UHGV virus genome: UHGV-0062447
Reading direction: 5' to 3' (one strand)
DNA from: a virus
DNA length: 26,556 bases
Within the stretch, counting starts at the first letter, position 1, and the number at the start of each line of letters is the position of its first letter. The position numbers and the translations under genes are program-made. Positions 3,438 to 25,865 of the stretch are shown here, piece after piece. The notes under the pieces were generated by a model. That model saw only the letters and a program-made list of their open reading frames with translations. It was not told where the DNA came from and searched no databases.

Positions 3438-3455
3438 TGTGTGGTAAATGACACA
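3438..3455. promoter_or_regulatory. TGT-N12-ACA dyad (P2 Ogr / 186 B late-activator-type site) upstream of V
   Basis: Sequence TGTGTGGTAAATGACACA read directly; P2 late promoters carry TGT-N12-ACA upstream of the -35 region. Spacing to the V start (about 55 bp to the ATG) is shorter than expected, so tentative. Confidence 0.3.
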
Positions 3456-3486
3456 AATACAATTCCAATCGAAGAAAGGTAAAAGA

Positions 3487-4017
3487 ATGAGCCATCCAAT
3501 TGATTATTACGCTATAGAAGAACACGCAAGAATAATTGAGCAATTATGCTGTTCATCTGAATTTTATTTACAGCGTATATATTCCACACAGAAAGTATAT
3601 GATGGTTCTATAGTAACTGAATTTGAAATGGAGGAGTTATCGTACAACGGATGGTTGGAATATACCATTAGCAACAATCTTATTAGCCTTTGTACAAAAC
3701 TACGAATTCTCCAAGACACTAATGAACATGAGTGGAACCCAGATTACTCACCTGAGAAAGAAGCATTTGAAGAACATGAAAATATACTTTTTGTTATAGA
3801 TGGTCATGTTAAAGGTTCTATACGCGAATGCTGCAATAAAATTATTCACGCATTAAGTTTTGAGTTAACAAAAAAGACCGGCAAAAATGGAATAAAATAT
3901 TGGGATGGTTCTATTATTGCTTCTGGGGTTCAAAACAAAAAAAACTGGAAAATTAAAATAGACCTTTTCCCTTTTTGCCAAAGCATAAAAAGTTATTTAA
4001 GTTTATTAAGTGCGTAA
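3487..4017 (+). CDS. Hypothetical protein (176 aa), low-GC cargo gene between V and S on the opposite strand
   Basis: ORF 3448..4017; preferred start ATG 3487 preceded by AAAGG (gaaaggtaaaagaATG); alternative ATG at 3448. Coding sequence is very AT-rich relative to flanking core genes. No motif recognised. Confidence 0.65.
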   Translation: MSHPIDYYAIEEHARIIEQLCCSSEFYLQRIYSTQKVYDGSIVTEFEMEELSYNGWLEYTISNNLISLCTKLRILQDTNEHEWNPDYSPEKEAFEEHENILFVIDGHVKGSIRECCNKIIHALSFELTKKTGKNGIKYWDGSIIASGVQNKKNWKIKIDLFPFCQSIKSYLSLLSA

Positions 4018-4899: not shown

Positions 4900-5152
4900 T
4901 GTTTCGCTCCTGACACGCAATAATCATGTCCACTTTGTCTGCACAGACCGCCCAGGCGGCCTCCGTTTCATCCAGCAACGCATTCAGATCACCGTTAGTG
5001 CGTGGTGCTGCCTGCTCCAGCCGACACGGCGTCACTCGCGGACAACCACTGACGGTAAGCTGCACCTCCGGTGAGTGCCGGACGTTCCCGCAGCCGGATA
5101 ATGTCAGCAGGCAAAGGAGTATCAGCCCAGTGGCGTAAATCCTCGTTCTCAC
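4862..5152 (-). CDS. lysC: LysC, Rz1-like outer-membrane spanin lipoprotein, overlapping lysB out of frame
   Basis: N-terminus MRTRIYATGLILLCLLTLSGC has a signal peptide plus lipobox (LSGC); embedded in / overlapping the lysB frame as in P2. GTG start; exact start uncertain. Confidence 0.6.
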   Translation of the reverse strand: MRTRIYATGLILLCLLTLSGCGNVRHSPEVQLTVSGCPRVTPCRLEQAAPRTNGDLNALLDETEAAWAVCADKVDMIIACQERNSEQTTIPAPRPQ

Positions 5153-5423
5153 GTTTCAGTTCCTCGATCCGGCGTTGTCGTTGTCTCAGCTGTGCGCTGG
5201 TCTGTTCTGCTTCGGCATAGAGCCGCGCCTGCTCCCGGTTATTGGTTTCAGTCAGAATGGACAGGCTGATAAGCTGGCTGTTGCTCTTTGCCAGTGCCTG
5301 GCTTTTGCTCTGCAGCTTGTTTGCCTGCGTGCTGATGGTCTGGCTGGCATCAGCCAGCCGCCACGTCTGCCAGCCCAGCGCCGCCAGTAATAACGCCAGC
5401 ACAACCAGCAGCAACCGGTTCAT
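4995..5423 (-). CDS. lysB: LysB, Rz-like inner-membrane spanin
   Basis: 142 aa with an N-terminal TM segment (LLLVVLALLLAALGW) and a coiled-coil-like remainder; ATG 5421-5423 overlaps lysA stop. Confidence 0.75.
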   Translation of the reverse strand: MNRLLLVVLALLLAALGWQTWRLADASQTISTQANKLQSKSQALAKSNSQLISLSILTETNNREQARLYAEAEQTSAQLRQRQRRIEELKRENEDLRHWADTPLPADIIRLRERPALTGGAAYRQWLSASDAVSAGAGSTTH

Positions 5424-5797
5424 GCTGATACCTGTTGCGCCATCTGATTACGGGTCATCCAGAAGGCAATAACGGTCAGCAGATAAAAGACCAGGGTAAT
5501 AGCCCACCCCGTCCAGGCGAGACTTACAACAATCAGCAATCGCATCACCCAACTGGTAAATACGTTTTCTTTTCGGGTAATTGTCTTCAGCAAAGATGCC
5601 CTTAACTCCTGCCAGAGCGGGCCATTCTTAATTAACGCAGCCAGTGCTACCGGAATTACCGCCCATGTCAGCAAACAGGCTACCCAAACGCCGGACGCTG
5701 ACAGTACCGGAAAAATCCCCTGCGGATACACCATTGCTGCGATTAACAGCGCCATCCATAACATCAGAAATAGTCCGCTGATTAATTTCTTTTTCAT
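5420..5797 (-). CDS. lysA: LysA, small membrane lysis-timing protein
   Basis: From ATG at 5795-5797 (MKKKLISGLFLMLWMALLIAAMV...); several hydrophobic helices; position between K and lysB as in P2. Confidence 0.7.
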   Translation of the reverse strand: MKKKLISGLFLMLWMALLIAAMVYPQGIFPVLSASGVWVACLLTWAVIPVALAALIKNGPLWQELRASLLKTITRKENVFTSWVMRLLIVVSLAWTGWAITLVFYLLTVIAFWMTRNQMAQQVSA

Positions 5798-5798
5798 T

Positions 5799-6311
5799 TC
5801 AGTTTGCTCCCTGTAAACACCAGGCCATCTCCCGCGCACGGCGGTTATCCAGCCCCTGATTAAACACACCTTTTACATAAACCCAGCGCGGCAACTGTCG
5901 GCACGCATCCGCCCAGCGCCGCTGATTGAGCAATTTCACCAGCGTGGAACTACAGGCATTGCCCGTCCCCACGTTGAAGGCAAACGACACCGTAGCGTCA
6001 TACACCTTCTGTGGTGGCTGTTGCTTCACACACCTTTCCAGTGCCCGCTCCACACGCAGCACGTTGGAGATCAGCCCTTCTGCTGCCTGTCGTTCCGTGA
6101 TTGTTTTGCCGGGAATGACGCCCGATGTATTACCAATGCCGTCGGTCCAGACACTCGCGCTGCACTGATACGGCTGCAGACGACAGCCTTCGTAATCGGC
6201 AATCAGTTTCAGCCCCTCCACGGAGGTGTGAAGCTGCTGAAAACCCGGCAGCGTGGCAGCAATAGCCAGCACGGCCCCGACAAGGCAGCGTTTAACGATT
6301 GATGGATTCAT
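5799..6311 (-). CDS. K: Endolysin (lysozyme), P2 gpK-like
   Basis: 170-aa ORF, ATG 6309-6311; lysozyme-like sequence with an N-terminal hydrophobic segment; directly downstream of holin Y. Confidence 0.8.
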   Translation of the reverse strand: MNPSIVKRCLVGAVLAIAATLPGFQQLHTSVEGLKLIADYEGCRLQPYQCSASVWTDGIGNTSGVIPGKTITERQAAEGLISNVLRVERALERCVKQQPPQKVYDATVSFAFNVGTGNACSSTLVKLLNQRRWADACRQLPRWVYVKGVFNQGLDNRRAREMAWCLQGAN

Positions 6312-6507
6312 AGCCCTCCCGCGAGATCTGCCCGTCGCGCAGAAGCTGGTAGGCTTTGTGCTTGTAGTACCAGTTGATAGCCAGCATCAGCACACCAATC
6401 ATCAGGCCGCCCAGCGTTGAGGCATCCTTGATGGACAAATCGCCCAGCCAGGCCAGCACGACGGCGATGCAATACGTGATAAAGGTGCTGATTCGCTCAA
6501 GCGTCAT
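6292..6507 (-). CDS. Y: Holin, P2 gpY-like
   Basis: 71 aa, two or three TM segments and a charged C-terminus; ATG 6505-6507. Confidence 0.8.
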   Translation of the reverse strand: MTLERISTFITYCIAVVLAWLGDLSIKDASTLGGLMIGVLMLAINWYYKHKAYQLLRDGQISREGYESINR

Positions 6508-6510
6508 AAT

Positions 6511-6714
6511 TCAGTCCCATAGCTGGACGGTCTGCACGGTGGTGGTGGTCGGAATGTCCGGCAGCTCCACCTGCAGCCCGTGAGGTAAAAAGGGGCCGTA
6601 TTCGGCAAGCCCCGGATTTGCCTTCAGTACCTGCTCCGTGACACCCTGCGTGCGCCCGTAATGACGCCAGCAAAGCGCGTCCACCGTGTCATACTGATGC
6701 GCACGCACTTTCAT
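6511..6714 (-). CDS. X: Tail protein X
   Basis: 67-aa ORF between L and Y; ATG 6712-6714 overlaps L stop; P2 gpX-like size and position. Confidence 0.75.
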   Translation of the reverse strand: MKVRAHQYDTVDALCWRHYGRTQGVTEQVLKANPGLAEYGPFLPHGLQVELPDIPTTTTVQTVQLWD

Positions 6715-9978: not shown

Positions 9979-11745
9979 ATGAACACCACACTGACACCCA
10001 CAGATCTCGATCCCCGTCGGCAGGCCATGCTGCTGTACTTTCAGGGATACCGCGTAGCCCGCATTGCTGAAATGCTGGGCGAGAAAGTTGCAACCGTTCA
10101 CAGCTGGAAGAAACGCGACAAGTGGGGTGACTATGGGCCGCTGGATCAGATGCAGCTCACCACCGCCGCCCGCTACTGCCAGCTCATTATGAAGGAGCAC
10201 AAAGAAGGGAAAGATTTCAAAGAGATTGACCTGCTGGCGCGCCAGTCGGAACGCCACGCGCGGATCGGCAAGTTTAACAATGGCGGCAACGAAGCCGACT
10301 TAAACCCTAACGTCGCCAACCGCAACAAAGGCCCGCGCCGTCAGCCGGAAAAGAATGTTTTCACCGATGAGCAGATTGAGAAGCTGGAAGAAATCTTCCA
10401 TTCCTCCATGTTCAACTACCAGCGCCACTGGTGGGAAGCCGGAAAAACCAACCGCATCCGCAACCTGCTGAAATCACGCCAGATCGGCGCGACCTTTTAC
10501 TTTGCCCGTGAAGCCCTGATTGACGCTCTGCTTACCGGACGTAACCAGATTTTCCTTTCCGCCAGTAAGGCACAGGCCCACGTCTTTAAGCAGTACATCA
10601 TCGACTTCGCCAAAGAAGTCGAGGTGGAGCTGAAAGGCGATCCGATGGTGCTTCCTAACGGGGCCACGCTTTACTTCCTCGGCACCAATGCCCGCACGGC
10701 CCAGAGTTACCACGGCAACCTGTATCTGGATGAATATTTCTGGATACCGAAATTCCAGGAGCTGCGCAAAGTGGCTTCCGGTATGGCTATTCACAAAAAA
10801 TGGCGACAAACCTATTTTTCCACGCCATCCAGCCTGACACACAGTGCTTATCCGTTCTGGTCCGGTGCGCTGTTCAACCGGGGGCGCAACAAAGCCGATA
10901 AGGTGGACATCGACCTGTCCCACAGCAATCTGGCCCCCGGCCTGCTGTGCGCAGACGGGCAGTACCGCCAGATAGTCACCGTGGAAGATGCGGTGCGCGG
11001 CGGCTGTAACCTGTTCGACCTTGACCAGTTGCGCATGGAGTACAGCCCGGACGAATACCAGAACCTGCTGATGTGCGAGTTTGTGGACGATCTCGCGTCC
11101 GTGTTTCCGCTCAGCGAGCTGCAGGCGTGCATGGTGGACAGCTGGGAAGTCTGGACCGACTTTCATGCACTGGCGCTGCGCCCGTTTGGCTGGCGCGAGG
11201 TGTGGATCGGTTATGACCCGGCAAAAGGTACGCAGAACGGCGACAGCGCCGGGTGCGTGGTGGTGGCACCGCCAGCCGTGCCGGGCGGTAAGTTCCGCAT
11301 TCTTGAGCGTCACCAGTGGCGCGGGATGGACTTCCGCGCTCAGGCTGACGCCATCAAAAAACTGACCGAACAGTACAACGTGACATATATCGGCATCGAC
11401 TCGACAGGTGTCGGTCACGGAGTTTATGAGAACGTGAAAGCGTTCTTTCCTGCCGTCCGGGAGTTTGTCTACAACCCCAACGTTAAAAACGCCCTGGTAC
11501 TCAAGGCCTACGACATTATCAGCCACCGCCGTCTGGAGTTTGACGCCGGACACACCGACATTGCGCAGTCATTCATGGCAATCCGTCGCGCAACCACCGC
11601 CAGCGGCAACCGCCCGACCTATGAAGCCAGCCGCAGCGAAGAAGCCAGCCACGCCGATCTGGCCTGGGCAACAATGCACGCACTGTTTAACGAACCGCTG
11701 CAGGGCGAATCCGCCAATACCAGCAATATTGTGGAGATTTTTTGA
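9979..11745 (+). CDS. P: Terminase ATPase (large) subunit P
   Basis: 588-aa ORF, ATG 9979; P2 gpP-like translation; stop overlaps Q start (ATGA). Confidence 0.9.
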   Translation: MNTTLTPTDLDPRRQAMLLYFQGYRVARIAEMLGEKVATVHSWKKRDKWGDYGPLDQMQLTTAARYCQLIMKEHKEGKDFKEIDLLARQSERHARIGKFNNGGNEADLNPNVANRNKGPRRQPEKNVFTDEQIEKLEEIFHSSMFNYQRHWWEAGKTNRIRNLLKSRQIGATFYFAREALIDALLTGRNQIFLSASKAQAHVFKQYIIDFAKEVEVELKGDPMVLPNGATLYFLGTNARTAQSYHGNLYLDEYFWIPKFQELRKVASGMAIHKKWRQTYFSTPSSLTHSAYPFWSGALFNRGRNKADKVDIDLSHSNLAPGLLCADGQYRQIVTVEDAVRGGCNLFDLDQLRMEYSPDEYQNLLMCEFVDDLASVFPLSELQACMVDSWEVWTDFHALALRPFGWREVWIGYDPAKGTQNGDSAGCVVVAPPAVPGGKFRILERHQWRGMDFRAQADAIKKLTEQYNVTYIGIDSTGVGHGVYENVKAFFPAVREFVYNPNVKNALVLKAYDIISHRRLEFDAGHTDIAQSFMAIRRATTASGNRPTYEASRSEEASHADLAWATMHALFNEPLQGESANTSNIVEIF

Positions 11746-12773
11746 TGGGAAAGAGTAAGAAGAACCGCGCTGCGGCGACGAAACAGCTCCAGCTTAAAAA
11801 CCAGACTACAGCCGAAGCATTCAGCTTCGGCGATCCCGTTCCTGTTCTGGACCGCCGAGAACTGCTGGACTATGTGGAATGCGTACAGATGGATCGCTGG
11901 TATGAGCCGCCCGTCAGCCTTGACGGACTGGCACGAACCTTCCGCGCCGCCGTGCATCACAGCTCACCAATTGCGGTGAAATGCAACATTCTGACCAGTA
12001 CCTACATCCCTCACCCGCTGCTCAGCCAGCAGGCTTTTTCACGTTTTGTGCAGGACTATCTGGTATTTGGTAACGCCTACCTGGAGAAACGCACGAACCG
12101 CTTCGGTGAAGTTATCGCCCTTGAGCCTGCTCTGGCAAAATACACCCGACGCGGGTTAGACCTGGATACCTACTGGTTTGTACAATACGGCATGACTACG
12201 CAGCCGTATCAGTTCACGAAAGGCAACATTTTTCATCTGATGGAACCGGACATCAACCAGGAGATCTACGGCCTGCCCGGTTATCTTTCTGCAATTCCGT
12301 CAGCTCTGCTCAACGAGTCCGCCACGCTGTTCCGCCGCAAGTATTACATTAACGGCAGTCATGCAGGCTTCATCATGTACATGACCGATGCAGCGCAGAA
12401 CCAGGAGGATGTGAACAACCTCCGCAATGCGATGAAAAGCGCCAAAGGTCCTGGTAACTTCCGTAACCTGTTTATGTACTCGCCTAACGGTAAAAAGGAC
12501 GGGCTTCAGATTATTCCTCTGTCAGAAGTCGCGGCAAAGGATGAATTTTTGAATATCAAGAACGTGAGCCGGGATGACATGATGGCAGCACACCGAGTGC
12601 CGCCGCAAATGATGGGGATAATGCCGAATAATGTTGGGGGATTTGGGGATGTGGAGAAGGCTAGTAAGGTTTTTATGCGTAATGAATTGATACCGCTACA
12701 AAACAGAATAGAAGAACTCAATAAATGGCTCAAAGATGACATAATAAAATTCATGCCATACAGTTTCATATAA
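11745..12773 (+). CDS. Q: Portal (capsid vertex) protein Q
   Basis: 342 aa from ATG 11745; P2 gpQ-like; the last ~110 bp of coding sequence are markedly AT-rich. Confidence 0.85.
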   Translation: MGKSKKNRAAATKQLQLKNQTTAEAFSFGDPVPVLDRRELLDYVECVQMDRWYEPPVSLDGLARTFRAAVHHSSPIAVKCNILTSTYIPHPLLSQQAFSRFVQDYLVFGNAYLEKRTNRFGEVIALEPALAKYTRRGLDLDTYWFVQYGMTTQPYQFTKGNIFHLMEPDINQEIYGLPGYLSAIPSALLNESATLFRRKYYINGSHAGFIMYMTDAAQNQEDVNNLRNAMKSAKGPGNFRNLFMYSPNGKKDGLQIIPLSEVAAKDEFLNIKNVSRDDMMAAHRVPPQMMGIMPNNVGGFGDVEKASKVFMRNELIPLQNRIEELNKWLKDDIIKFMPYSFI

Positions 12774-12804: not shown

Positions 12805-14478
12805 TTAAGATTTATGGCTAAAGAGTATACCTGTAACAGAACGTTGATAGGCATCAAGCTTCTCTTGCCTCTGCTTAAATTTAGATTTGATATCACTAAT
12901 ACTCGGAATACCTATTACTCCAAGGCCTGCACTTAACGTCGCTAAAGTAGTATTGCCAGTCAGCGCTCCAGCAATTGCTATAGCACCATTTGCGATACAT
13001 GGTAGGACATCTAGTCCGTAAATTCTCAATTTCTCTTTTTGGGCTTTTGCAAGAATCCTTTGATGTTCAATAAAAGCCCGGTCTACATTATCAATTACTT
13101 TTTGCGTTGTCCTCGAAAAGCTCTCTGCCGAAGAATTGATTAAAGAGTCAACACCATTTGATAAGATGGATCTTACATCCTCCATCAATTTGTTACGTCT
13201 CAACTCAATTATTTTATTGACCGGTACATTTCCTAACCATGAAAAACCATCTTGCATACCAGCAGATAACGCATGAACCATATGCAAATTTTTTAGTTCA
13301 ATATCATTGACATCAAAATTAAGAGATTCGTACTCAATAAGCCAAGTATAATAGAGCCAAGATGTGTCTGCATTTATATATGGAGTACTACCAAGTTCTT
13401 GTGCATTACATTTTGCTGAATAGGCTTGCGGCATTCTTCCAATGCAGGAAAGGAAAACCTCCATTCCAGCATGATCACCAACAACATTACGTGATATTCT
13501 TTTTTTATCAGATAGTAGTTTTTCTAATTGAGTTTTTGGATTTAGCCCCCATGCTGTATCAAAAATAAGTCTATCTGCTCTCTTAATATTTTTAAGAACA
13601 GCATCAATATCATTCATCGAATAACTAAAATCTTGAAATTCATCGTAGCTTTCGAACCGTCGATCATAGAGATATTGCGCATGAGTCAGAGCATAAGGCT
13701 CACAAAAACTCATCAAATTTTTTTTGCTCTCAGTTTCAAAATCTCTTCTATCCGGCAAAATTAATACTATTGCTGGCTCTATATCTTCAAGCGCTACTTC
13801 TTTATATGTCATACATGTTAGGACATGCTTTAGAAGTATCCTTGTAAACTCAGCCTTATCTGACTTTTCATAGAGACGACCGACTCTTAATATAGGACAT
13901 GGAAGTGAAATAGTATCAACATACAACCCTGCAATAGAGACAGCATTCTCATCAAATGCAGGAAATAAGTCACCAGAAAAATTAGCTTTAAACTGAGAAC
14001 CATCCTGCAAATGTATTACACCAATATCGGATGTTACCTGCCAAAACTCTATTACCTGATTATATAACTCAGGAAAAACATCTTCTATTTGCTTAACATA
14101 TTCTTCTTGTTGAGAAAAAAAACTTGATGCTTTATGTGGCGTTGCATTAGTTTTTTTCATCAGATAAAACAACTCGCCAAAATTACTAAAAAGAATATTA
14201 AAGTAAGAACTTTGCAAGTCCTGAATAGAGTATTTGTTTTTTATATCTTCTCTTTCTAAAAAGTGATTAACCGCTGCTCCCATAGCCTTTATTCTGCCAT
14301 CAACAGTAGAAGGGTCAACTTTACCATCCTGTCGCAGCCTTATTCTTTTAAAACTTTCAATAAAACCTTCTACAAGATGATGAGCTATTTTTAGTTTTCC
14401 CGCTTCCAGTTGTTGCTTAATGAGAAAAACACGCTCAGTTAAATCGTCTACATATTCCTCATCTTGATATTTTTCCAT
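12805..14478 (-). CDS. Hypothetical 557-aa protein with C-terminal hydrophobic/glycine-rich hairpin; low-GC cargo gene between Q and cos
   Basis: Single long ORF, ATG 14476-14478 with GGAG 6 nt upstream; very AT-rich; C-terminal segment ...LPCIANGAIAIAGALTGNTTLATLSAGLGVIGIPSI... is hydrophobic; no Walker motif or other domain recognised by eye. Confidence 0.8.
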   Translation of the reverse strand: MEKYQDEEYVDDLTERVFLIKQQLEAGKLKIAHHLVEGFIESFKRIRLRQDGKVDPSTVDGRIKAMGAAVNHFLEREDIKNKYSIQDLQSSYFNILFSNFGELFYLMKKTNATPHKASSFFSQQEEYVKQIEDVFPELYNQVIEFWQVTSDIGVIHLQDGSQFKANFSGDLFPAFDENAVSIAGLYVDTISLPCPILRVGRLYEKSDKAEFTRILLKHVLTCMTYKEVALEDIEPAIVLILPDRRDFETESKKNLMSFCEPYALTHAQYLYDRRFESYDEFQDFSYSMNDIDAVLKNIKRADRLIFDTAWGLNPKTQLEKLLSDKKRISRNVVGDHAGMEVFLSCIGRMPQAYSAKCNAQELGSTPYINADTSWLYYTWLIEYESLNFDVNDIELKNLHMVHALSAGMQDGFSWLGNVPVNKIIELRRNKLMEDVRSILSNGVDSLINSSAESFSRTTQKVIDNVDRAFIEHQRILAKAQKEKLRIYGLDVLPCIANGAIAIAGALTGNTTLATLSAGLGVIGIPSISDIKSKFKQRQEKLDAYQRSVTGILFSHKS

Positions 14479-14579
14479 AAACGCTCCATTAAAATATTTA
14501 ATAATGCATATAAGAATAGTTAATAATATTTACAGTAACTATATCACATTAGATCCAGATTGTTACACTGTTGCGCGCG

Positions 14580-14598
14580 CTCGTATCCCCGCCACGCC
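14580..14598 (-). other. Putative cos site (cohesive-end sequence)
   Basis: Minus-strand sequence GGCGTGGCGGGGATACGAG; the first 13 nt match the P2/186 cohesive-end sequence as I recall it (GGCG[A/T]GGCGGGGAAAGCA[C/T]), followed by a CGCGCGC tract as in the P2 left end. Location between Q and A is as expected. Confidence 0.5.
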
Positions 14599-14640
14599 TG
14601 CCCGCTTTATGTAGCGGTTTTCATGCGCCTGCATGACATA

Positions 14641-14667
14641 AGCAAAAGCCCGCCACTCCTGGCGGGC
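14641..14667 (-). terminator. Rho-independent terminator (GCCCGCC-ACTCCT-GGCGGGC stem-loop, T-run on minus strand)
   Basis: Read directly; lies about 95 bp 3-prime of the 203-aa minus-strand gene. Confidence 0.65.
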
Positions 14668-14758
14668 CTCAGCTAAAACGATCCTCAAACGATCATGCGG
14701 ATTCATGCGGCATAGACATGCACAATCTCCAAAGCGGGCATCGAGACTTTTTGGAAAC

Positions 14759-15370
14759 CTACGTAACCACAGTTAATGTGTGCATCCTGTCTCGAATTGC
14801 ATCACACGTCTCATCAAAAAGCTTGGTGATGGTTGTACAGTTCAACTCCGCCTCTTTCCAATAATTTTGCCCGTCAAATTCTGGATCGCTATGCTTAAAC
14901 GATATTGACTCTGAAAGGCATTCCTTCCGGAAACGGTCCAAGATTATATAAACCTCTGGTGAGATGAACGGTTTGTTAGATTCAACACTTGTAACAAAAG
15001 TGTTAAATGCATCAAAAAAAACTTTCAACCTTCTAAATTTTCTCTCTTCAAATGGTTCGTTGGGGTCAACATGATCCAGCGCAGGCCTCAGCTTAAGCAC
15101 GCTTTCTCTGGTTTCAAACATCGAATTCCAAATGAGACTATATGCTGATAACTCCTTATCAAAATACGCTTTCGTTACATAAACAGAATTGTCTAACTTA
15201 GCCTTTATTCTTTCATTAGTTGCACTCAGTTGTGATTGAAATTCAGCAATATCTTTGTTTAGCCGCGACTTATATCTTTCTAAATAAACTTTCCCGATCC
15301 AAACAAATATGCCAGATGCAACAAAAGACACCCCACCCAACGAAGCCAGAACTTTAAAGACTAAATCCAT
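14759..15370 (-). CDS. Hypothetical 203-aa membrane-anchored protein (N-terminal TM helix); low-GC cargo gene between cos and the SOS operon
   Basis: ATG 15368-15370 preceded by AGGTGGGGG; N-terminus MDLVFKVLASLGGVSFVASGIFVWIG is a predicted TM helix; AT-rich; nothing recognised in the remainder. Confidence 0.8.
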   Translation of the reverse strand: MDLVFKVLASLGGVSFVASGIFVWIGKVYLERYKSRLNKDIAEFQSQLSATNERIKAKLDNSVYVTKAYFDKELSAYSLIWNSMFETRESVLKLRPALDHVDPNEPFEERKFRRLKVFFDAFNTFVTSVESNKPFISPEVYIILDRFRKECLSESISFKHSDPEFDGQNYWKEAELNCTTITKLFDETCDAIRDRMHTLTVVT

Positions 15371-15399
15371 TGCGCCCCCACCTGCAAAAATAGTATTCC

Positions 15400-15427
15400 A
15401 TTATAAGCTAATACATTTTTAATCAAA
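15400..15427 (-). promoter_or_regulatory. Sigma70-like promoter for the 203-aa gene (-35 TTTGAT, 16-bp spacer, -10 TATAAT)
   Basis: Read on the minus strand: ...cctgTTTGATtaaaaatgtattagctTATAATgg...; about 25-30 nt upstream of the ATG. Confidence 0.5.
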
Positions 15428-15634
15428 CAGGGGATAATTCGCGTCAACCTCATCACTTCTCTGCTCTACCCTAGTGACTTCCATCAAAAACCCCAGGCCG
15501 TCATATAGCGAAACGGGGAATTCCAGCTCAAGCCAGAAGCAGTCTTCATAGATGCGGCCCAACCAAAAACCTCCGCCACACTCCTTTGGGCGTTGAAAGA
15601 AGACCCAGTCGCCAAGGGTTAAACGTTCCAGCAC
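15419..15634 (-). CDS. Hypothetical small protein (71 aa, GTG start); possible third cistron of the SOS operon
   Basis: ORF-track entry only; no ATG start and a weak RBS. Confidence 0.3.
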   Translation of the reverse strand: MLERLTLGDWVFFQRPKECGGGFWLGRIYEDCFWLELEFPVSLYDGLGFLMEVTRVEQRSDEVDANYPLFD

Positions 15635-15996: not shown

Positions 15997-16185
15997 TCAA
16001 CTGATGACATCCATTGAGCGGTTGTATTCGTGGGTTCTGATTTTTGCCATGAGTTCATCTGTTAGTTCAGAAACCCACTGCAAAGCCAGCCCCTTCTCTT
16101 CATCACTACACTCACTAGCCGCTACAAGCTTAAGAAAAAAATCAATGCGCTGGAGCTTCAAAGACTCCAAAAAATAGTCCTGCAT
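15997..16185 (-). CDS. Small protein (62 aa), first cistron of the LexA-controlled operon
   Basis: ATG 16183-16185 preceded by GGAGGAAAAATG; ends 10 nt before the dinI-like ATG. Confidence 0.6.
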   Translation of the reverse strand: MQDYFLESLKLQRIDFFLKLVAASECSDEEKGLALQWVSELTDELMAKIRTHEYNRSMDVIS

Positions 16186-16228
16186 TTTTCCTCCTATGAC
16201 ACCACAAGCAATACTGTATACATAACCA

Positions 16229-16244
16229 CTGTTTATATTTACAG
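16229..16244. promoter_or_regulatory. LexA box (SOS operator) CTGTTTATATTTACAG
   Basis: Perfect CTGT-N8-ACAG with AT-rich centre, read directly, inside the promoter region of the small-ORF/dinI-like operon. Equivalent to the LexA-repressed p95/tum promoter of phage 186, located between A and cos. Confidence 0.8.
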
Positions 16245-16338
16245 TATATAATAATCTTACTGATGTAAAACGTTTTTTTACGTTCATCAGCCTGATATGC
16301 CTGGTATTATTAAGAGCACGAATTGTTAATCAGCGTAA

Positions 16339-18753
16339 TTAATACATGTTCCGCCATTTATCATCCTCCTGCAGACGCTGGTTCCGATAGAAGATACGCA
16401 GGCCTGCTCCTGACGGAATACTGCCACCGCGAAGGAGCAACTCGACCTCTTTCTCGCTGCCATCAAATCCTCTGGACTTCAGTTCATAGACAAGCTGCTG
16501 TCGCTGATGGTCTGTAATTCGCTGTTTGTAGTCTTTACGCCGTTTCGGTTTCACCAGGCGTAACCTTGCTGCCAGTTCCCGGCGATCTTTTTTGCTCATA
16601 CTGTGCAGGTAATCGTGCAACTCCTTGTCATTCATACGGGTAATATCCGTTCTGGAGTCCCCATCAGCTGATTTGTTTTTCCCTTGTTGGTTCAAATTTT
16701 CAGCAAGGGGACAGTTATTGCCACGAGTCCAAGGGGCGCAAGCGCCCTGGTCGGCTGCCGCCTCCTGAACGTCAACGGCCTTACGAACCATTTTCCACTT
16801 CACCGCATGAGTGCAGATCTTGCCCTCTGCAATGGGTGACCAGATGCCATAAATACGAATACCGTGATCGCCATAGGCGGTTGGCTCTTCGTTGATTTCA
16901 TAAGCGGTTCTGATGAGGTGATATTTACGGGGAACCAGTACGCCGCCCTGCTTCATGATATAGGTGGCAAAACAACCAGCATCAGCAGCAGCCAGAATGG
17001 CATCAAGGCGCGGGTTATCCAGTACCGGCGCACCTGCTTTTTTGTCACCCTGTTGCCTTGCCGCCTGACCAGCCAGCAATCGCAGTTCACGGTAAGCCTG
17101 ACGCCCCGGAATGCCAAAGAAGCGGAATTGCTGAACACGATGCAGAGACGCCCAGGCATTAACGTATTCAGCGTTATCACGCAGGGATTTACCCGTTTCC
17201 TTGCTGATCTCCCCAGCCAGACCACGCCCGTCAATGTTCTTACTGATGTATTTCGCGATATAGCTTGTTGGCGTACCTTTGCGCGGGTTTATCAGCTCAG
17301 ACTTAAAGCGTGGTCCCGTGTTATTGCCCAGCTCCTCGCGGTCTTCACGGATGGCAAACTTACGCAGTAATGCAGTGATGGCGCGGCGGTCTTTTTTACG
17401 CATGAAACACATGAGATGCCAGTGCACAGTACCGTCATGATGCGGCTCAGCTACCCGCACGCCATACCAGCGCAACTCGGCTTTATGCATAGCCTTACGA
17501 AATGCAGCAAACATGCCGACCAGATAATCGCTACTTTGTCTTACCGTCGCGTTTGTCCAGGTCGGGTTTGGTCTGCCGTTATTGAGCGTGGAATGGAAAC
17601 GCGACGGACAGGTGATAGTGTAGAAAACGGCACAGTCACTGCGCATTTCCGCGATAAGCTCCAGACCTTTAACACAGGCCATCATCTCATTGCGGCGATG
17701 CGCCGGGTTGCTGCTGCTGGCGTTTACCACATCTTCCATATCCAGCGTGTCGCCGTCTTCGTTCACCAGTTCATGAGAACGAAAAAACTCCAGCGACTTA
17801 CGGCGCTGCTCACGTTTATGCATCACGGCTTCATAGCTGACATAGGGGGATGCTTTTTTGCTGACCAGGCAGACAGCACGCAACTGCTCTTCCCGCCATT
17901 CGCAACGCATCTTCCATAATTTCCGATACCACCAGTCGGCACACAACATACGCGCCAGCGAACCCGGGATGAGTTCATAGGGCACTGGTTTGCGGCGGTT
18001 TCTTTTCCGACGAAGTTTCTCAAACGCAGGCGGGATAACATCCAGACGCAGGGTTTCCGCTGCCACCTTTTCCCATGTCTTGCGGATTTCTTCTGGCTTA
18101 ACGTCATCGGTGGCATACAAGTCACCACAAGCGTCCTCAAGACACATGCTCATATGCGCTGCTACCAGGGTGGACAGGCGTTTCACCTGATCCTGGCTCA
18201 TTTCAGGCAGGATCAGCAGACCCTCCAGCCCTTGATGGCTTGCCATAAAACGGAAAGAAACAGATAGCTGACTGTCACGTACACAATCCAGTCGCTCCAG
18301 ACATGGCTTAATCGTCTCACGCAAATAGCGGGAATAAGCCTTTGGCCTGCCCAGGCTGCTGAAGTATTCAATACGTTGCATCAGCGGCTTGCTGATATGG
18401 GAAGGCTGGGCGTTTACGTCCGCCAGAATGACCATGTCCGGATTAAAACGCTGCTGCTCATGCGCCAGCTTTGCCCGGCTAATGAGCTTATCCTGCTCCA
18501 TTTCGCGCTGGACAGGATCACGGGATTCATTAAAGAAATAACGCTCCCAGACCTGCTCACTCAGTGCCTCGCGGCGCAGTTGTTCCTGCTCGTTATCGGC
18601 AGCGTACAGAGTGATCAGGTTTGAAAGTGCAGACTCCGGCGCAACTTCCGCCGGGTCCAGATAAGGGTTAATGGCCTTTTTCGAGCCGTTCCATGAAAAT
18701 GCTGCGGCGGCCTCGTTAAAGCCGCTGCAATTGTTCATATCGTCATGACTCAT
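16339..18753 (-). CDS. A: Replication initiation protein A (rolling-circle endonuclease), P2/186 gpA-like
   Basis: 804 aa from ATG 18751-18753 (overlaps dam stop as ATGA); large protein in the expected position, with translation recognised as P2/186 gene A family. Confidence 0.85.
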
Positions 18754-19607
18754 ACACACACTCCGTACACGGCAGAACTATCCACGCCACGCGAAGGATC
18801 AAATCCCAACCAGCAGCTCGGCCCGGAAACAGCAATGATTTCTGTTGCAGATTTACCCTCGCCAGCTGACACGCCGATGCTGCGTTTTGCCTTGATATAG
18901 TGGTGAGTAAAATTGCGATACAGCGAACGAATCAGGGATGTGTCATTGTTAGAAACAATGACCGGATGTCCTTCTGATGACCGATGTTCAAGAATGGATG
19001 CCAGGTGATACTGGTCATCTTCAGTGAAACCATCAGTGTGATAGCCGGAAAACGTACCGTCATACGGCGGATCGCAATACACCACATCCCCCACCTGCAG
19101 CATCGCCAGCGTTTCATCAAAGCTCGCGCAGATAAACGTTGCCCGCTGGGCTTTCTCTGCAAATGCGCGAATTTCTTTTTCAGGGAAATACGGATTTTTA
19201 TAATTACCGTAGGGAATGTTGAAATACCCGCTCTTGTTATAGCGACATAAACCACGGTAACCGTGACGATTGAGATACAGGAAATATATCGCCTTCATGA
19301 AATCAGTAATTTCAGTTGAGTAATTAAACTCCTGTCTTATGTTGTAATAAGCCAGCTCACTGTTTGCTTCCTCAAATAAAACTTTGGCACGAGATATAAA
19401 CGCTTCGCAATCAGCGGCAATCTTTTTATAGAGGTTGATTAAATCAGGATTAATATCCGCAACCAGATAGCTGGGGTAATCCGTCGCCATCATCACAGCA
19501 CAAGAACCCGCGAAAGGTTCAACCAGTCGCGGGCCAGCAGGAAGGTATTTTTTCAGTTCGGACATAATGGCGGTTTTATTACCCGCCCATTTCAGGATGG
19601 TGCTCAT
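18750..19607 (-). CDS. dam: DNA adenine methyltransferase (Dam-like, N6-adenine MTase)
   Basis: From ATG 19605-19607: [23 protein letters not shown]...FAGSCAV... and a DPPY catalytic motif ([14 protein letters not shown]). Confidence 0.85.
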
Positions 19608-22475: not shown

Positions 22476-22564
22476 AAGGCAACATTCCTTCTAGATATGG
22501 CTTGTGGCGAGCCGTTGTTTGTCGTGATTAGTAGTGAAGGCTCCAAAAGAAGACTTCTGGTTCA

Positions 22565-22593
22565 ACTTTAAGATCGCTTTTGGAATCTGTCAA
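22565..22593 (-). promoter_or_regulatory. Lytic promoter (pR-like): -35 TTGACA, 17-bp spacer, -10 TAAAGT on the minus strand
   Basis: Read on the minus strand: TTGACAgattccaaaagcgatctTAAAGT. Directed toward apl and located inside the cI leader, the face-to-face arrangement described for 186 pR/pL. Confidence 0.55.
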
Positions 22594-22620
22594 CGAATTT
22601 TGGATTTCTTTGGAGGATTT

Positions 22621-23190
22621 GTGGATTTCAATAGCGGCGGTAAGAAAGCCATAGAACGTTTGGTTGAAGCATACGGGTTCGGTACCCGTCAGGCTCTCTG
22701 TGATCATTTAGGTGTTTCTAAGAGCACCATGGCAACGCGTTATATGCGTGATATTTTTCCGGCAGATTGGGTAATCCAGTGCGCCCTTGAAACGGGTACC
22801 TCGCTTAATTGGCTAACAACAGGGCATGGTTCAAAGCAAGCATCAGCAAATACAAATACTATAGAAGTAGTAAAATATTTATTGTCTGATGGAGCATTGC
22901 AGGAAGACGGTTTTTATATTTTTGATAAGGGATTTCTACCCTCTACGTTTAAAAAACCTTTTGTCATCACAGATAACAATTCTGAATTTATTTGTGATAA
23001 AGAATTTGATGATATACGTGATGGTAAATGGGTAATAAGTATTGATGGCGAAATAACAATCCGCGACATCACTCGTTTACCCGGTGGAAGAATTTTCGTT
23101 GAAGGTGGAAACAGAGCCTTCGAGTGCAAGATAGAAGATGTTGAAATAATTGGAAAAATTATAAGCTTAACAGTTAAGTATGTTAGATAA
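22621..23190 (+). CDS. cI: CI immunity repressor (186 CI family)
   Basis: Preferred GTG start at 22621 preceded by GGAGG (ORF-track start 22534 is also GTG). N-terminal HTH region (...AIERLVEAYGFGTRQALCDHLGVSKSTMATRYMR...ALETGTSLNWLTTGHG) and C-terminal pattern (WVISIDGEITIRDITRLPGG...GGNRAFECKIEDVEIIG) parallel 186 CI; C-terminal half is AT-rich. Confidence 0.8.
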   Translation: MDFNSGGKKAIERLVEAYGFGTRQALCDHLGVSKSTMATRYMRDIFPADWVIQCALETGTSLNWLTTGHGSKQASANTNTIEVVKYLLSDGALQEDGFYIFDKGFLPSTFKKPFVITDNNSEFICDKEFDDIRDGKWVISIDGEITIRDITRLPGGRIFVEGGNRAFECKIEDVEIIGKIISLTVKYVR

Positions 23191-23401: not shown

Positions 23402-24733
23402 ATGAGCACAGATATAACTTTCGATATACGTGATGAATATAAAAGAAAAGCCATTGCAGAAAAAATAATAAGTTTGCTAGAGTCTAATATTCCTGTTTCA
23501 CCTATGGTCATAGATGGGGACTGGGGGACTGGAAAAACAGAGTTTTCAAAAAAGTTAGCATCCTTAATTGAAATAAACTCGACCAATCATAAAGTAGTTT
23601 ATATAGATGCTTTTACTGAAGATCACAACGATGCTCCCATACTTACAATAATGGCCGCAATTGCAGCTCTATATAATAGCGATGAAAAAAAGGAATTAAT
23701 ATCTAAGGCATTGCCAGCCCTCAGATTCGGACTTAAGACTGTACTCAAAGCTGGTGCTGGTTGGGTATTAAAACAAAATGCGGATGAAATTAATGAGGAA
23801 TTTGAAGAGGTTATCAAAGACGCTGCAAATTCAGCTATCGATGGAACCATCGAGGCTCTGTTAGAAGATCATATCGAGGCACAAAAGAACGTTCTTGCTC
23901 TAAAAGAAGTACTAACCAAATTAGCTGGAGAAAGTAAACTAACAATAATTATAGATGAGTTAGACAGATGTAAGCCTAGTTTTGCCATTTCTATTATTGA
24001 AAATATAAAACATGTTTTTGATATAAAAAACATTAACTTTTTATTAATTGCAAACACAACTCAACTAAAAGCATCCATAAATCATATCTATGGCTCTTCT
24101 GTAGACTCCAACCGTTATCTTGACAAATTTATAAAATTTACATACAGCCTTCCTGTTACCTTTAAGGAAGATAATTATAATGACACTTTAACTTCCAAAA
24201 ATCATTGGATGATGCTATGTGAGCAATCTGAAAGGCTGACCGCTGCAGTAGAAGCCAGCGAAGATATTTTCTTACAGTTCATTGAAAGTAGAAAATTATC
24301 ATTACGTGAGGTTGAAACACTTGCTAGATATGTTGAAATATACCAACTACTATCAGGCGACAAAATTAGCAACAAATATATTTATGGATATTGTTATTAC
24401 AGGACTCTAGCGATAATAATCTACACTTTTAACCGAGAGTTAGCTCTCAACTTTCTTGAAGATAAAGTTGATGCTCAATCAATCATGAAATTGTTTGGTT
24501 TGTCTAAATTTTCATATCAAACAAGTGAATATAATGTAGATAATTATGAATATGCTATATTTGGAATAGTTTACAAATACTTATCTGAAAACTCATCTCT
24601 TTTACCTACTGAGGAAAATATAAAAAGACAATGGGCAGAAATGAGTGAATACCATTTTTTAAAAGGTAGTGGCGGTATTGGTGAACCAACAAATATTGTG
24701 AAAGATGCTTTAAAAGTTTTTTTACTTCAGTGA
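23402..24733 (+). CDS. KAP-family P-loop NTPase (443 aa)
   Basis: Walker A in the KAP-typical form GDWGTGKT and Walker B IIIDELDRC (DxLDRC); AT-rich; ATG 23402 preceded by AGGAA. Confidence 0.75.
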   Translation: MSTDITFDIRDEYKRKAIAEKIISLLESNIPVSPMVIDGDWGTGKTEFSKKLASLIEINSTNHKVVYIDAFTEDHNDAPILTIMAAIAALYNSDEKKELISKALPALRFGLKTVLKAGAGWVLKQNADEINEEFEEVIKDAANSAIDGTIEALLEDHIEAQKNVLALKEVLTKLAGESKLTIIIDELDRCKPSFAISIIENIKHVFDIKNINFLLIANTTQLKASINHIYGSSVDSNRYLDKFIKFTYSLPVTFKEDNYNDTLTSKNHWMMLCEQSERLTAAVEASEDIFLQFIESRKLSLREVETLARYVEIYQLLSGDKISNKYIYGYCYYRTLAIIIYTFNRELALNFLEDKVDAQSIMKLFGLSKFSYQTSEYNVDNYEYAIFGIVYKYLSENSSLLPTEENIKRQWAEMSEYHFLKGSGGIGEPTNIVKDALKVFLLQ

Positions 24734-24759
24734 TATGTATGGCTATACAAATTCATACA

Positions 24760-24788
24760 TTGACACTGGTTATATATACAGTAAAAAT
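24760..24788 (+). promoter_or_regulatory. Putative sigma70 promoter upstream of int (-35 TTGACA) overlapped by a LexA-box-like dyad CTGGTTATATATACAG
   Basis: Read directly: TTGACA-CTGGTTATATATACAG-TAAAAAT; the dyad differs from CTGT-N8-ACAG at one position. Confidence 0.35.
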
Positions 24789-24812
24789 GCTCTCCACTGG
24801 AGGGCATTTTTT

Positions 24813-25865
24813 ATGGCTGTACGAAAACTCACCACAGGAAAATGGCTTTGCGAATGTTACCCCGCCGGACGTAGTGGGCGTCGTGTGCGTAAACAATTCG
24901 CCACCAAAGGCGAAGCACTGGCTTTTGAGCGTCACACGATGGAAGAAACCGAAGCAAAGCCCTGGCTGGGTGAATCAGTGGATCGTCGAACACTGAAAGA
25001 CGTGGTTGAGCTATGGTTCAAACTACATGGTAAATCTCTGACTGCTGGGCAGCATGTCTATGACAAATTGCTGCTGATGGTTGACGCTCTGGGCAATCCC
25101 CTTGCAACTGATCTAACCTCTAAAATGTTTGCCCACTATCGAGATAAACGCCTGACAGGTGAGATCTACTTCAGCGAGAAATGGAAGAAAGGAGCAAGCC
25201 CGGTCACCATTAACCTGGAGCAAAGCTATCTAAGTAGTGTTTTTAGCGAACTATCCCGCCTGGGCGAATGGTCGTATCCGAACCCACTGGAGAACATGCG
25301 AAAATTCACCATCGCAGAAAAAGAGATGGCATGGCTTACCCATGAGCAGATTGTTGAATTACTGGCTGATTGCAAACGTCAGGAGCCAATTCTGGCACTG
25401 GTAGTTAAGATATGCTTAAGCACAGGCGCACGCTGGCGAGAAGCCGTAAATCTTACCCGCTCACAGGTGACCAAATACCGAATTACCTTTGTAAGAACGA
25501 AGGGGAAGAAAAACAGAAGCATCCCTATCAGTAAAGAGCTTTACGAAGAGATCATGGCGCTTGATGGATTCAATTTCTTCACAGACTGCTATTTTCAATT
25601 TTTATCCGTGATGGAAAAAACGTCTATCGTGCTCCCTCGCGGTCAACTCACACACGTTCTGCGCCATACGTTTGCGGCGCACTTCATGATGTCGGGTGGA
25701 AACATTCTGGCCTTACAAAAAATTCTCGGACACCACGATATAAAAATGACTATGCGTTACGCACATCTGGCACCGGATCATCTGGAAACGGCGCTCCGTT
25801 TCAATCCTCTGGCAACGCTGCCAAGTGGCGACAAAGTGGCGGCAGCGGTTGGCATTACCCCGTAA
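24813..25865 (+). CDS. int: Tyrosine integrase (P2/186 Int family)
   Basis: From ATG 24813: MAVRKLTTGKWLCECYPAGRSGRRVRKQFATKGEALAFE... parallels the P2 Int N-terminus (MAIKKLDDGRYEVDIRPTGRNGKRIRRKFDKKSEAVAFE) and contains the catalytic-region motifs STGARW, HVLRHTFA and MRYAH. Confidence 0.9.
   Translation: MAVRKLTTGKWLCECYPAGRSGRRVRKQFATKGEALAFERHTMEETEAKPWLGESVDRRTLKDVVELWFKLHGKSLTAGQHVYDKLLLMVDALGNPLATDLTSKMFAHYRDKRLTGEIYFSEKWKKGASPVTINLEQSYLSSVFSELSRLGEWSYPNPLENMRKFTIAEKEMAWLTHEQIVELLADCKRQEPILALVVKICLSTGARWREAVNLTRSQVTKYRITFVRTKGKKNRSIPISKELYEEIMALDGFNFFTDCYFQFLSVMEKTSIVLPRGQLTHVLRHTFAAHFMMSGGNILALQKILGHHDIKMTMRYAHLAPDHLETALRFNPLATLPSGDKVAAAVGITP

Follow-up and report, generated by a model that had tools for sequence, protein, structure and literature searches.

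The window analysed here, a 26,556-nucleotide stretch of viral DNA (UHGV virus genome UHGV-0062447), is a P2-like (Peduoviridae) prophage whose map orientation is reversed relative to the usual P2 map. The subject of this work is a gene on its minus strand that encodes a protein of 203 amino acids (aa) and lies beside cos, in the interval between the replication gene A (gpA) and the portal gene Q (gpQ). The gpA-gpQ interval was described as the hotspot of anti-phage systems in P2, a phage in which it contains tin and old (Rousset et al. 2022, PMC9122126), and the hotspot was confirmed in a later study (Moura de Sousa et al. 2026, PMC13586616). Thus, the gene occupies the slot of old and tin, where a first reading of the DNA made by a model from the letters alone (the sequence-only reading) had placed it. 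The gene order is gpA, a 62-aa gene (phrog_698), a DinI-family gene, a 71-aa open reading frame (ORF), the 203-aa gene, cos, a 557-aa gene, and the portal gene. The principal genes and the boundary between the two cargo slots are as follows:

11742-12773, plus strand: portal gene Q
12805-14478, minus strand: 557-aa ORF
14580-14598, minus strand: homologue of the cos 19-mer, GGCGTGGCGGGGATACGAG, from sequence; boundary between the two cargo slots
14759-15370, minus strand: coding sequence of the 203-aa protein, a predicted bitopic membrane protein of an unnamed family (phrog_26391); ORF with an ATG start
16339-18759, minus strand: replication gene A (gpA)

The gene and its slot

The ORF opens with an ATG, encodes 203 aa and, as had been noted, is AT-rich: its GC content is 38.6%, compared with 52.7% in gpA and 50.0% in the portal gene. 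Over its full length, the protein matches phrog_26391 (E 1e-141), the function of which is given in PHROG as unknown. When the gene is compared with its Enterobacter-type orthologue (83% protein identity, dS about 0.85), the ratio of nonsynonymous to synonymous substitution rates (dN/dS) is 0.11, which indicates that the gene is under purifying selection. By these sequence measures, the ORF is a real gene. It is present in 52 of the approximately 1267 E. coli genomes that carry a P2-type cos block (about 4%). Such patchy presence, together with an atypical base composition, is what is expected of a moron, and the position between gpA and gpQ, beside cos, is that of hotspot cargo. No close relatives of the gene were found in the species-representative genomes searched, and the copies recovered from Enterobacteriaceae all sit in the P2 defence hotspot.

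Transcription signals and cos

The elements that flank the gene are listed below:

15400-15426, minus strand: promoter with -35 TTGATT (15426-15421), a 15-bp spacer, and -10 TATAAT (15405-15400), from sequence and conservation
15379-15383, minus strand: Shine-Dalgarno sequence AGGTG, from sequence
14640-14668, minus strand: terminator-like hairpin GGCCCGCCA-GGAG-TGGCGGGCT, followed by TTTTGCTT, from RNA folding

The sequence-only reading had proposed that the gene possesses its own promoter, with a TATAAT hexamer at -10 and a 16-bp spacer, as well as a strong ribosome-binding site and a downstream terminator. The -10 hexamer is perfect and lies 29 nucleotides (nt) from the ATG, and the assignment of a separate promoter stands, but the spacing does not: the best -35 hexamer, which matches the consensus at four of six positions, sits at 15 bp. 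The consensus promoter scanner accepts spacers of 16-18 bp and therefore missed this promoter. A motif match alone is weak evidence here, because the scanner found five promoter-like sites in the region and 10.3 in shuffled sequence. Across nine loci that represent two diverged types (E. coli-type and Enterobacter-type), neither hexamer changes, while spacer, discriminator, and untranslated-region positions vary. The weight of the promoter thus rests on the invariance of its hexamers and on RNA sequencing (RNA-seq) of an orthologue, the start site itself being predicted at about 15393. The ribosome-binding site, AGGTG, is found 8 nt before the ATG.

The hairpin downstream of the gene is followed by a U-tract, has a folding free energy of -30.3 kcal/mol for a 69-nt stretch (z = -3.98), and is kept in all aligned loci. 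It lies within a cos-flanking block of approximately 150 bp (14573-14723) that the same roughly 1267 E. coli genomes carry at 82-97% identity with any cargo, and hence it is not private to the 203-aa gene; it belongs to the conserved cos flank and may serve both roles. A simple terminator scanner did not report the hairpin, which was checked by hand; on our reading, a G-U-extended stem that consumes part of the U-tract accounts for this. The record of the Cartapus prophage annotates the corresponding region as P2-like cos. A 47-aa ORF (14563-14706, minus strand) spans the cos cleavage site inside the conserved block, and its counterparts of 53-56 aa in three other loci (L004, L014, and L015) are at times annotated by gene callers; it would be split in the virion and is probably not a gene.

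Expression in the lysogen

The closest studied orthologue, CARTA_47 (LF82_789), is 98.4% identical and belongs to the prophage Cartapus of E. coli LF82, so that the expression evidence consists of published RNA-seq of another strain than that of the window. LF82_789 is one of only two Cartapus morons and is transcribed at seven times the prophage background in lysogeny broth (LB) (Misson et al. 2023, PMC9928086). The S1 Table of that study spans growth in LB, in Dulbecco's modified Eagle's medium (DMEM), and in macrophages; its condition codes are read here as DMEM (B1, B6) and macrophages (MB1, MB6) at 1 h and 6 h, respectively. The values for CARTA_47, given as log2 fragments per kilobase per million (fpkm), with paired values separated by a slash, are (PMC9928086 S1 Table):

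BLB (overnight LB): 5.4 / 5.6
B1: 7.1 / 7.3
B6: 8.6 / 8.5
MB1: 9.0
MB6: 10.5

In the same table, the upstream gene CARTA_46 is at 3.3/3.1 in LB and 2.8/2.6 in B6, gpA is at approximately 2.5, and normalised counts in LB are 45.8 for CARTA_47, 9.0 for the upstream gene, and 5.6 for gpA; moreover, the late genes are silent in the lysogen while CARTA_47 is on (PMC9928086 S1 Table). Since CARTA_46 is at background in LB and DMEM while CARTA_47 is on, transcription starts between the two, in agreement with a promoter of the gene's own. The transcripts of this near-identical orthologue also show that the gene is not silent in lysogens. The sequence-only reading had expected constitutive expression, and it was right that the gene is transcribed in the lysogen but not that the level is constant, as log2 fpkm ranges from 5.4 to 10.5, a spread of approximately 30-fold. 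A promoter of its own, a terminator, and lysogen expression apart from the lytic operons, the last established for the orthologue, are further traits of a moron. It is strongly supported that the 203-aa gene is a moron that is transcribed from its own promoter in the lysogen and ends at the hairpin before cos.

In macrophages, the upstream block rises as well, with CARTA_44 reaching 10.9 and DinI 9.2 log2 fpkm (PMC9928086 S1 Table). This fits a LexA box located at 16229-16244 of the window (see below), and part of the CARTA_47 signal in macrophages is SOS-driven read-through from the upstream LexA-box operon. On the other side of cos, the DUF4145 gene of LF82 (CARTA_1, which together with CARTA_47 lies at 5001-6600 of locus L017) has a condition profile like that of CARTA_47 at about half its level (log2 values 4.7, 7.0-7.2, 7.6, 9.2, and 9.5-9.6). 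The parallel profiles reflect either read-through of the cos hairpin or two promoters with a like response. If read-through is responsible, a gpA-side promoter would partly drive portal-side cargo, and would do so only in the prophage or circular form.

Architecture of the predicted protein

Three segments can be distinguished in the 203-aa protein:

15293-15358, minus strand: transmembrane (TM) helix, residues approximately 5-26, with conserved small residues G12, G13, G20, and G26, from hydropathy
15188-15292, minus strand: basic, heptad-like stalk, residues 27-61, a probable coiled coil, from the AlphaFold2 model and residue spacing
14771-15187, minus strand: four-helix bundle, residues 62-200

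The single N-terminal TM anchor that had been proposed is borne out by a hydrophobic helix at approximately residues 5-26 (Kyte-Doolittle mean 2.0) and by the lack of a second such segment. Of 125 family members, 114 have a single strongly hydrophobic segment at the N-terminus, and no member shows another one. The 15 residues before the TM helix contain on average 0.37 Lys and Arg, the 15 residues after it contain 3.3, and this bias is seen in 122 of the 125 members. Because Lys and Arg are enriched after the helix, the positive-inside rule predicts an N-out/C-in topology, in which a short N-terminal tail would face outward and the bundle would be cytoplasmic. The TM glycines are invariant in the close family.

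AlphaFold2, when supplied with a deep alignment, models the protein with a mean predicted local distance difference test (pLDDT) score of 94.3 and a predicted template modelling (pTM) score of 0.74. One continuous helix, residues 14-92 (pLDDT 95-98), comprises the TM segment, the stalk, and the first helix of the bundle, and is followed by helices 107-131, 138-160, and 168-200; in the model, the fold is a four-helix bundle such as that of the 4HB_MCP sensors. The stalk has a 3-4 spacing of hydrophobic residues and varies from 25 to 71 residues across the family. One residue class modulo 7 is over-represented among stalk lengths (39 of 104 members, 37%, with peaks at 51 and 58), a count in which related sequences are not independent. 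These features suggest that the stalk is a coiled coil. In the bundle, E73 and P134 are invariant in the 125-sequence alignment, and W81, L94, R95, P96, F135, E154, I192, R193, and R195 are conserved in at least 90% of the sequences. Helical-wheel reasoning would direct E73, R114, E154, N177, and R195 toward the core of the bundle. An Rx4-6H motif in helix 4, which resembles that of HEPN proteins, was considered and rejected, as its His is not conserved beyond the close family and its spacing is wrong. Taken together, the protein is predicted to be a bitopic inner-membrane protein with a helical soluble domain.

An unannotated family

In agreement with the sequence-only reading, which had left the rest of the protein unrecognised, the 203-aa protein has no match in Pfam, NCBIfam, or PADLOC. 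The 125 relatives, searched against Pfam and PADLOC, share no recurring family and give only sub-threshold coiled-coil noise, and Foldseek searches of PDB and BFVD with the model returned nothing below E 1e-3. Since neither Foldseek, nor a PDB profile search, nor Pfam, nor PADLOC gives a match, the fold is best described as a generic four-helix bundle and the family as unannotated. Many RefSeq copies of the protein are named 'valyl-tRNA synthetase' (e.g., NZ_CP025862.1, 3302764-3303375). The only basis found for this name is a coiled-coil match to Pfam Val_tRNA-synt_C that is sub-threshold (16.7 bits against a cut-off of 25.9), and hence the name is spurious.

An index-based search recovered 17 close clusters, all from Enterobacteriaceae. 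An exhaustive profile search extended the family to 923 representative clusters (50% identity) at E<=1e-3, including 388 at E<=1e-10; nearly all members are 190-220 aa long and are aligned end to end. In addition, the back-translated motif F-[DE]-x-E-F-x2-Y-x3-W-x12-L-R-P was scanned in one-genome-per-species contigs (185,579 species representatives) and, with roughly half sensitivity, identified 31 loci, 29 of which hold true members. Members occur in Bacteroidota, Gamma- and Alphaproteobacteria, Cyanobacteria, Planctomycetota, Elusimicrobia, Acidobacteriota, Desulfobacterota, Bdellovibrionota, and Bacillota.

The neighbourhoods of distant members are diverse. Many members have housekeeping neighbours, including pheT, gcvP, aconitase, acyl-CoA dehydrogenase, and a major facilitator superfamily (MFS) transporter, some only 20-40 bp away. 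Defence-type neighbours also occur (PDC-S41 Schlafen helicase, SIR2-STAND, Mrr, dCTP deaminase, PDC-S22, PDC-S02, and PDC-M68A), as do integrases and a transposase. In IMG/VR, an integrase (Arm-DNA-bind_3 plus Phage_integrase), AlpA, and the family gene follow one another in this order in five of eight motif-positive contigs. Pseudomonas phage Riah carries a homologue beside the CI/Cro region, on the strand opposite to its neighbours; a satellite-like element of L. plantarum carries one directly after the integrase; and in Clostridium phage Maintenon the homologue is flanked by the genes for the small and the large terminase. Other distant members are located near integrases, a HigB/helix-turn-helix pair, and an HNH-WYL gene. 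The common theme across the family is that of a solitary accessory gene in the cargo slots of mobile elements. The 73 neighbour proteins of distant members contain no homologous pair and no recurrent Pfam or PADLOC family, which argues that there is no conserved partner gene. Judged from these neighbourhoods, it is strongly supported that the 203-aa gene needs no such partner.

Two cargo slots joined at cos

The sequence-only reading had observed that the 557-aa gene is a neighbour of the 203-aa gene across the hairpin and cos, which is correct (the two are on the same strand, 280 bp apart), and it had suggested that the pair could be one two-component system, split by cos in the virion and rejoined in the prophage. 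Of the compared loci, only the window and a single metagenome scaffold (L022) show this arrangement, with 557-aa cargo beside the 203-aa gene. Further points in its favour are the parallel expression, in LF82, of the 203-aa orthologue and the gene across cos, and a weak partial match of the 557-aa protein (residues 195-452, E 5.9e-10) to PADLOC DitB of the two-gene Aditi system, the ditA-ditB order of which the two genes would mimic. The 557-aa protein has no Pfam match.

The distribution of the two genes largely refutes this suggestion. Among 5426 complete E. coli genomes, the 203-aa gene is present in 52 and the 557-aa gene in 17 (two of its occurrences being on plasmids), and no genome contains both at >=80% coverage of a query spanning the two genes. 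Thirty-six external loci, of which 21 are from IMG/VR, were compared with the window by clustering of the cos-to-portal DNA, and 17 unrelated types of cos-to-portal cargo were found opposite the 203-aa gene. These include AIPR, DUF4145, STM3845 plus reverse transcriptase, OLD-like AAA_15/TOPRIM, AAA_21 plus RloB, Schlafen/HATPase, and a 223-aa protein without known function. Conversely, the 557-aa protein occurs with at least five other gpA-side cassettes, among which no DitA-like partner was seen. The 203-aa protein has no match in PADLOC, DitA included, at E<=1; no 557-aa homologue was found near distant members of the 203-aa family; and a literature search on Aditi, DitA, and DitB yielded no relevant paper. 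Both sides of cos thus assort with other cargo, and the chance that the two genes form one system appears minimal.

The position of the joint is apparent from alignments. The distance from the 203-aa gene to cos is fixed in contigs that carry the exact protein or the 83% relative, and homology between loci with differing portal-side cargo (L003-L012) ends a few bases past the cos 19-mer. Because homology stops just beyond this point, cos is the joint of two slots that exchange independently. As far as the aligned sequences indicate, the gpA-gpQ hotspot is therefore made up of two sub-slots, joined at cos, that are swapped independently of each other.

The upstream ORF and the SOS-linked block

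A second potential partner lies on the gpA side:

15419-15634, minus strand: 71-aa ORF (phrog_2100) with a GTG start, a decaying gene; its 3' end carries the promoter of the 203-aa gene

Wherever the 203-aa gene occurs in the P2-like loci examined, the 71-aa ORF is present too, and loci without the gene also lack the ORF, which would suit a module of two genes. It is, however, disrupted by a frameshift and a stop in Enterobacter-type loci and truncated in the window (71 aa) relative to LF82 (86 aa). Its GC content (50.5%) is like that of the phage backbone, its counterpart is at background while CARTA_47 is on, and a tblastn search revealed no homologues of it beside distant members of the 203-aa family. 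The 71-aa ORF was rejected as a partner because it is disrupted in one lineage, and a two-gene module is considered highly improbable. Our reading is that the ORF is a decaying gene that houses the promoter.

Further upstream, a perfect LexA-box core CTGT-N8-ACAG (TACTGTAAATATAAACAGTG) is located at 16229-16244, directly upstream of the 62-aa phrog_698 gene (ATG at 16185) and the DinI-family gene. The LexA-box unit spans positions 16165-16246 of the window on the minus strand and reaches 15753. In LF82, the phrog_698 and DinI genes surge in macrophages and gpA stays silent. The unit recalls the SOS-controlled p95-tum unit of phage 186.

Comparison with known systems

With tin, old, and other hotspot cargo, the 203-aa gene shares the gpA-cos slot, variability among close phages, a foreign composition, and expression from the prophage. 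The 203-aa protein has no sequence similarity to P2 Old and Tin and differs from them in its predicted membrane anchor.

Several phages encode membrane proteins that mediate superinfection exclusion (Sie), such as lactococcal Sie2009, P22 SieA and SieB, T4 Imm, and HK97 gp15. Like the 203-aa protein, Sie proteins are small and membrane-anchored; the lysogen makes them from a promoter of their own, and their genes occupy a variable slot of temperate phages. Moreover, the homologue of phage Riah, beside the CI region, is in the classic Sie position. Neither the 203-aa protein nor the 125 relatives give a consistent match to Sie families in Pfam (SieB), PHROG, or PADLOC. In contrast to Sie proteins, the 203-aa protein is predicted to be mostly cytoplasmic, and for this reason intracellular sensing suits it better than a periplasmic block of injection.

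The four-helix bundle fold is shared with 4HB_MCP and histidine-kinase sensors (PDB 4k0d, TorS, Tar/Tsr). Unlike these sensors, the 203-aa protein has one TM helix, nothing after the bundle, and no signalling domain, its bundle is predicted to be cytoplasmic, and it has no Pfam match that would place it in the 4HB_MCP family. The structural match to sensor bundles is generic, because the scores are almost as good for talin, catenin, FAT domains, and designed bundles. As for Aditi, the 557-aa protein is weakly DitB-like, but the 203-aa protein lacks a DitA match and the two genes assort independently.

Candidate functions

That the 203-aa gene is stand-alone cargo encoding a bitopic membrane protein is regarded as very probable. 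An anti-phage function, namely single-gene phage exclusion or abortive infection, is favoured tentatively, at appreciably less than an even chance; description and anti-phage role taken as a whole are considered the best explanation, with a likelihood just short of even. An anti-phage role is suggested by the slot, by the cargo across cos, by expression in the lysogen, and by the recurrence of the family in mobile-element cargo slots. In particular, the portal-side cargo found opposite the gene consists mostly of known defence types (AIPR, retron-type reverse transcriptase, OLD-like, AAA_21 plus RloB, and Schlafen-like proteins), the gene is under purifying selection despite its foreign composition, its promoter hexamers are conserved, and the orthologue is expressed in the lysogen apart from the upstream genes. 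The TM helix with its topology bias, the high-confidence, all-helical model, the lack of a conserved partner, the large family aligned end to end, and the defence genes beside some of its members also speak for such a role.

A possible mechanism is that the membrane-tethered cytoplasmic bundle recognises, on the inner side of the membrane, some component of a phage that is entering the cell or replicating in it. Recognition might then block genome entry or early development; alternatively, it might cause the glycine-rich TM helices to oligomerise, so that the membrane would be compromised. The conserved TM glycines would allow helices to pack against one another, whether the result is a lesion in the membrane or docking on a partner there, and the near-invariant charged residues (E73, R95, E154, R193, and R195) would suit recognition of a phage component. 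A broader proposal is that the 203-aa protein is the first recognised member of a phylum-spanning family of single-gene anti-phage proteins that comprises at least 923 clusters and resides in at least four kinds of elements (the gpA-cos slot, int-AlpA islands, CI-proximal regions, and Gram-positive satellite-like elements). In that case, the invariant Glu/Arg set, buried or clustered, could form a trigger-sensing site and the glycine-rich TM helix could act as the effector. This broader proposal is doubtful and is put forward as rather unlikely.

Several points weigh against an anti-phage role. No published anti-phage assay of the gene or of an orthologue was found in the literature. The orthologue WP_000366628 is listed as 'hypothetical' in Table S5 of Rousset et al. 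(PMC9122126), in a locus type given as 'hypothetical + DinI + hypothetical + hypothetical + DUF4145', and this locus type is absent from their table of tested systems (PMC9122126). When the 203-aa protein was searched against Pfam, NCBIfam, and PADLOC (PADLOC-DB of 2023), nothing emerged beyond coiled-coil noise below threshold, and a sequence-profile search of PDB gave no match. A generic four-helix bundle, as modelled, carries no functional information, and both topology and oligomerisation are predictions. Finally, many distant members lie beside housekeeping genes rather than in defence islands, and the strong induction in DMEM and in macrophages suits a role in host physiology equally well.

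Induction and housekeeping neighbours make such a role a serious rival, even if an unlikely one. In this explanation, the protein would be a lysogenic-conversion factor, that is, a membrane-tethered cytoplasmic adaptor for envelope, stress, or division functions that is useful, for example, in macrophages. The bitopic N-out/C-in layout, in which a helical domain lies in the cytoplasm, resembles that of known envelope and division adaptors. Expression of the orthologue, at log2 5.5 in overnight LB, increases to 8.6 in DMEM and reaches 10.5 after 6 h in macrophages, a larger rise than that of its upstream neighbour, although SOS-driven read-through from the LexA-box operon adds to the macrophage signal. 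Housekeeping genes surround many distant members, yet the family is very patchy, with about 30 members among the 185,579 species representatives at the roughly half sensitivity of the motif scan. It is also recurrently linked to mobile-element cargo slots, and the Enterobacteriaceae copies that were found all lie in the P2 defence hotspot.

The same conserved TM glycines, suited to helix packing, and the solitary occurrence of a small membrane protein on mobile elements would be in keeping with a membrane-active toxin or addiction module that harms cells which lose or misregulate the prophage, without sensing phages. Such a toxin is quite improbable, as there is no conserved antitoxin-like partner (the small upstream ORF is decaying), the orthologue is strongly expressed in viable LF82, and a simple membrane toxin would not be expected to have a soluble domain that is large and conserved and contains invariant polar residues. 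The gene might also serve the cycle of the phage itself, for example in lysis timing, in packaging, or in regulation near cos; such a function is brought to mind by the adjacency to cos and the shared cos-flanking hairpin, by the position of the Maintenon homologue between terminase genes, and by an architecture superficially like that of i-spanins. The predicted topology is, however, opposite to that of a spanin, the composition is AT-rich and foreign, and the gene is expressed in the lysogen with the late genes silent. A lysis or morphogenesis gene would be expected in every related phage and would be switched on late, and neither holds for the 203-aa gene, which only about 4% of the E. coli genomes with a P2-type cos block carry. 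Nor does it correspond to a known phage morphogenesis protein, its PHROG being of unknown function and the gene being rare among P2-like prophages. A role in the phage's own cycle is accordingly judged very unlikely.

Other cargo in the same prophage

The prophage carries further AT-rich genes outside the gpA-gpQ interval. A 443-aa KAP-family P-loop NTPase (Pfam E 1.4e-53; 31-38% GC) is encoded at 23402-24733 on the plus strand, between the CI repressor gene (22534-23190) and the integrase gene (24735-25865). This site is a second cargo slot of the prophage and agrees with the integrase-side hotspot described in PMC13586616. An AT-rich island (32% GC) at 3448-4017, on the plus strand, contains a 189-aa ORF without a Pfam match. 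It is situated among high-GC late (virion) genes, on the strand opposite to its neighbours, and is possibly a third cargo slot.

Significance

A literature search by accession and locus tag found only the LF82 paper, and an LF82 CRISPR interference (CRISPRi) preprint is silent on the gene. Earlier publications thus already record the gene, the slot it occupies, and its expression; new are the family, the architecture, and the independence from neighbouring genes. Because cos splits the hotspot into sub-slots that exchange independently, gene pairs that straddle cos should not be taken as operons or systems without evidence of co-occurrence. It is established that new anti-phage systems can be found in the P2 cos hotspot, and the 203-aa gene is an uncharacterised occupant of it. 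As a single small gene with its own promoter, for which lysogen expression of the orthologue is documented in the clinically relevant adherent-invasive E. coli (AIEC) strain LF82, it is an easy candidate. It also opens onto a large conserved family that is without annotation in Pfam, NCBIfam, PADLOC, and PDB.

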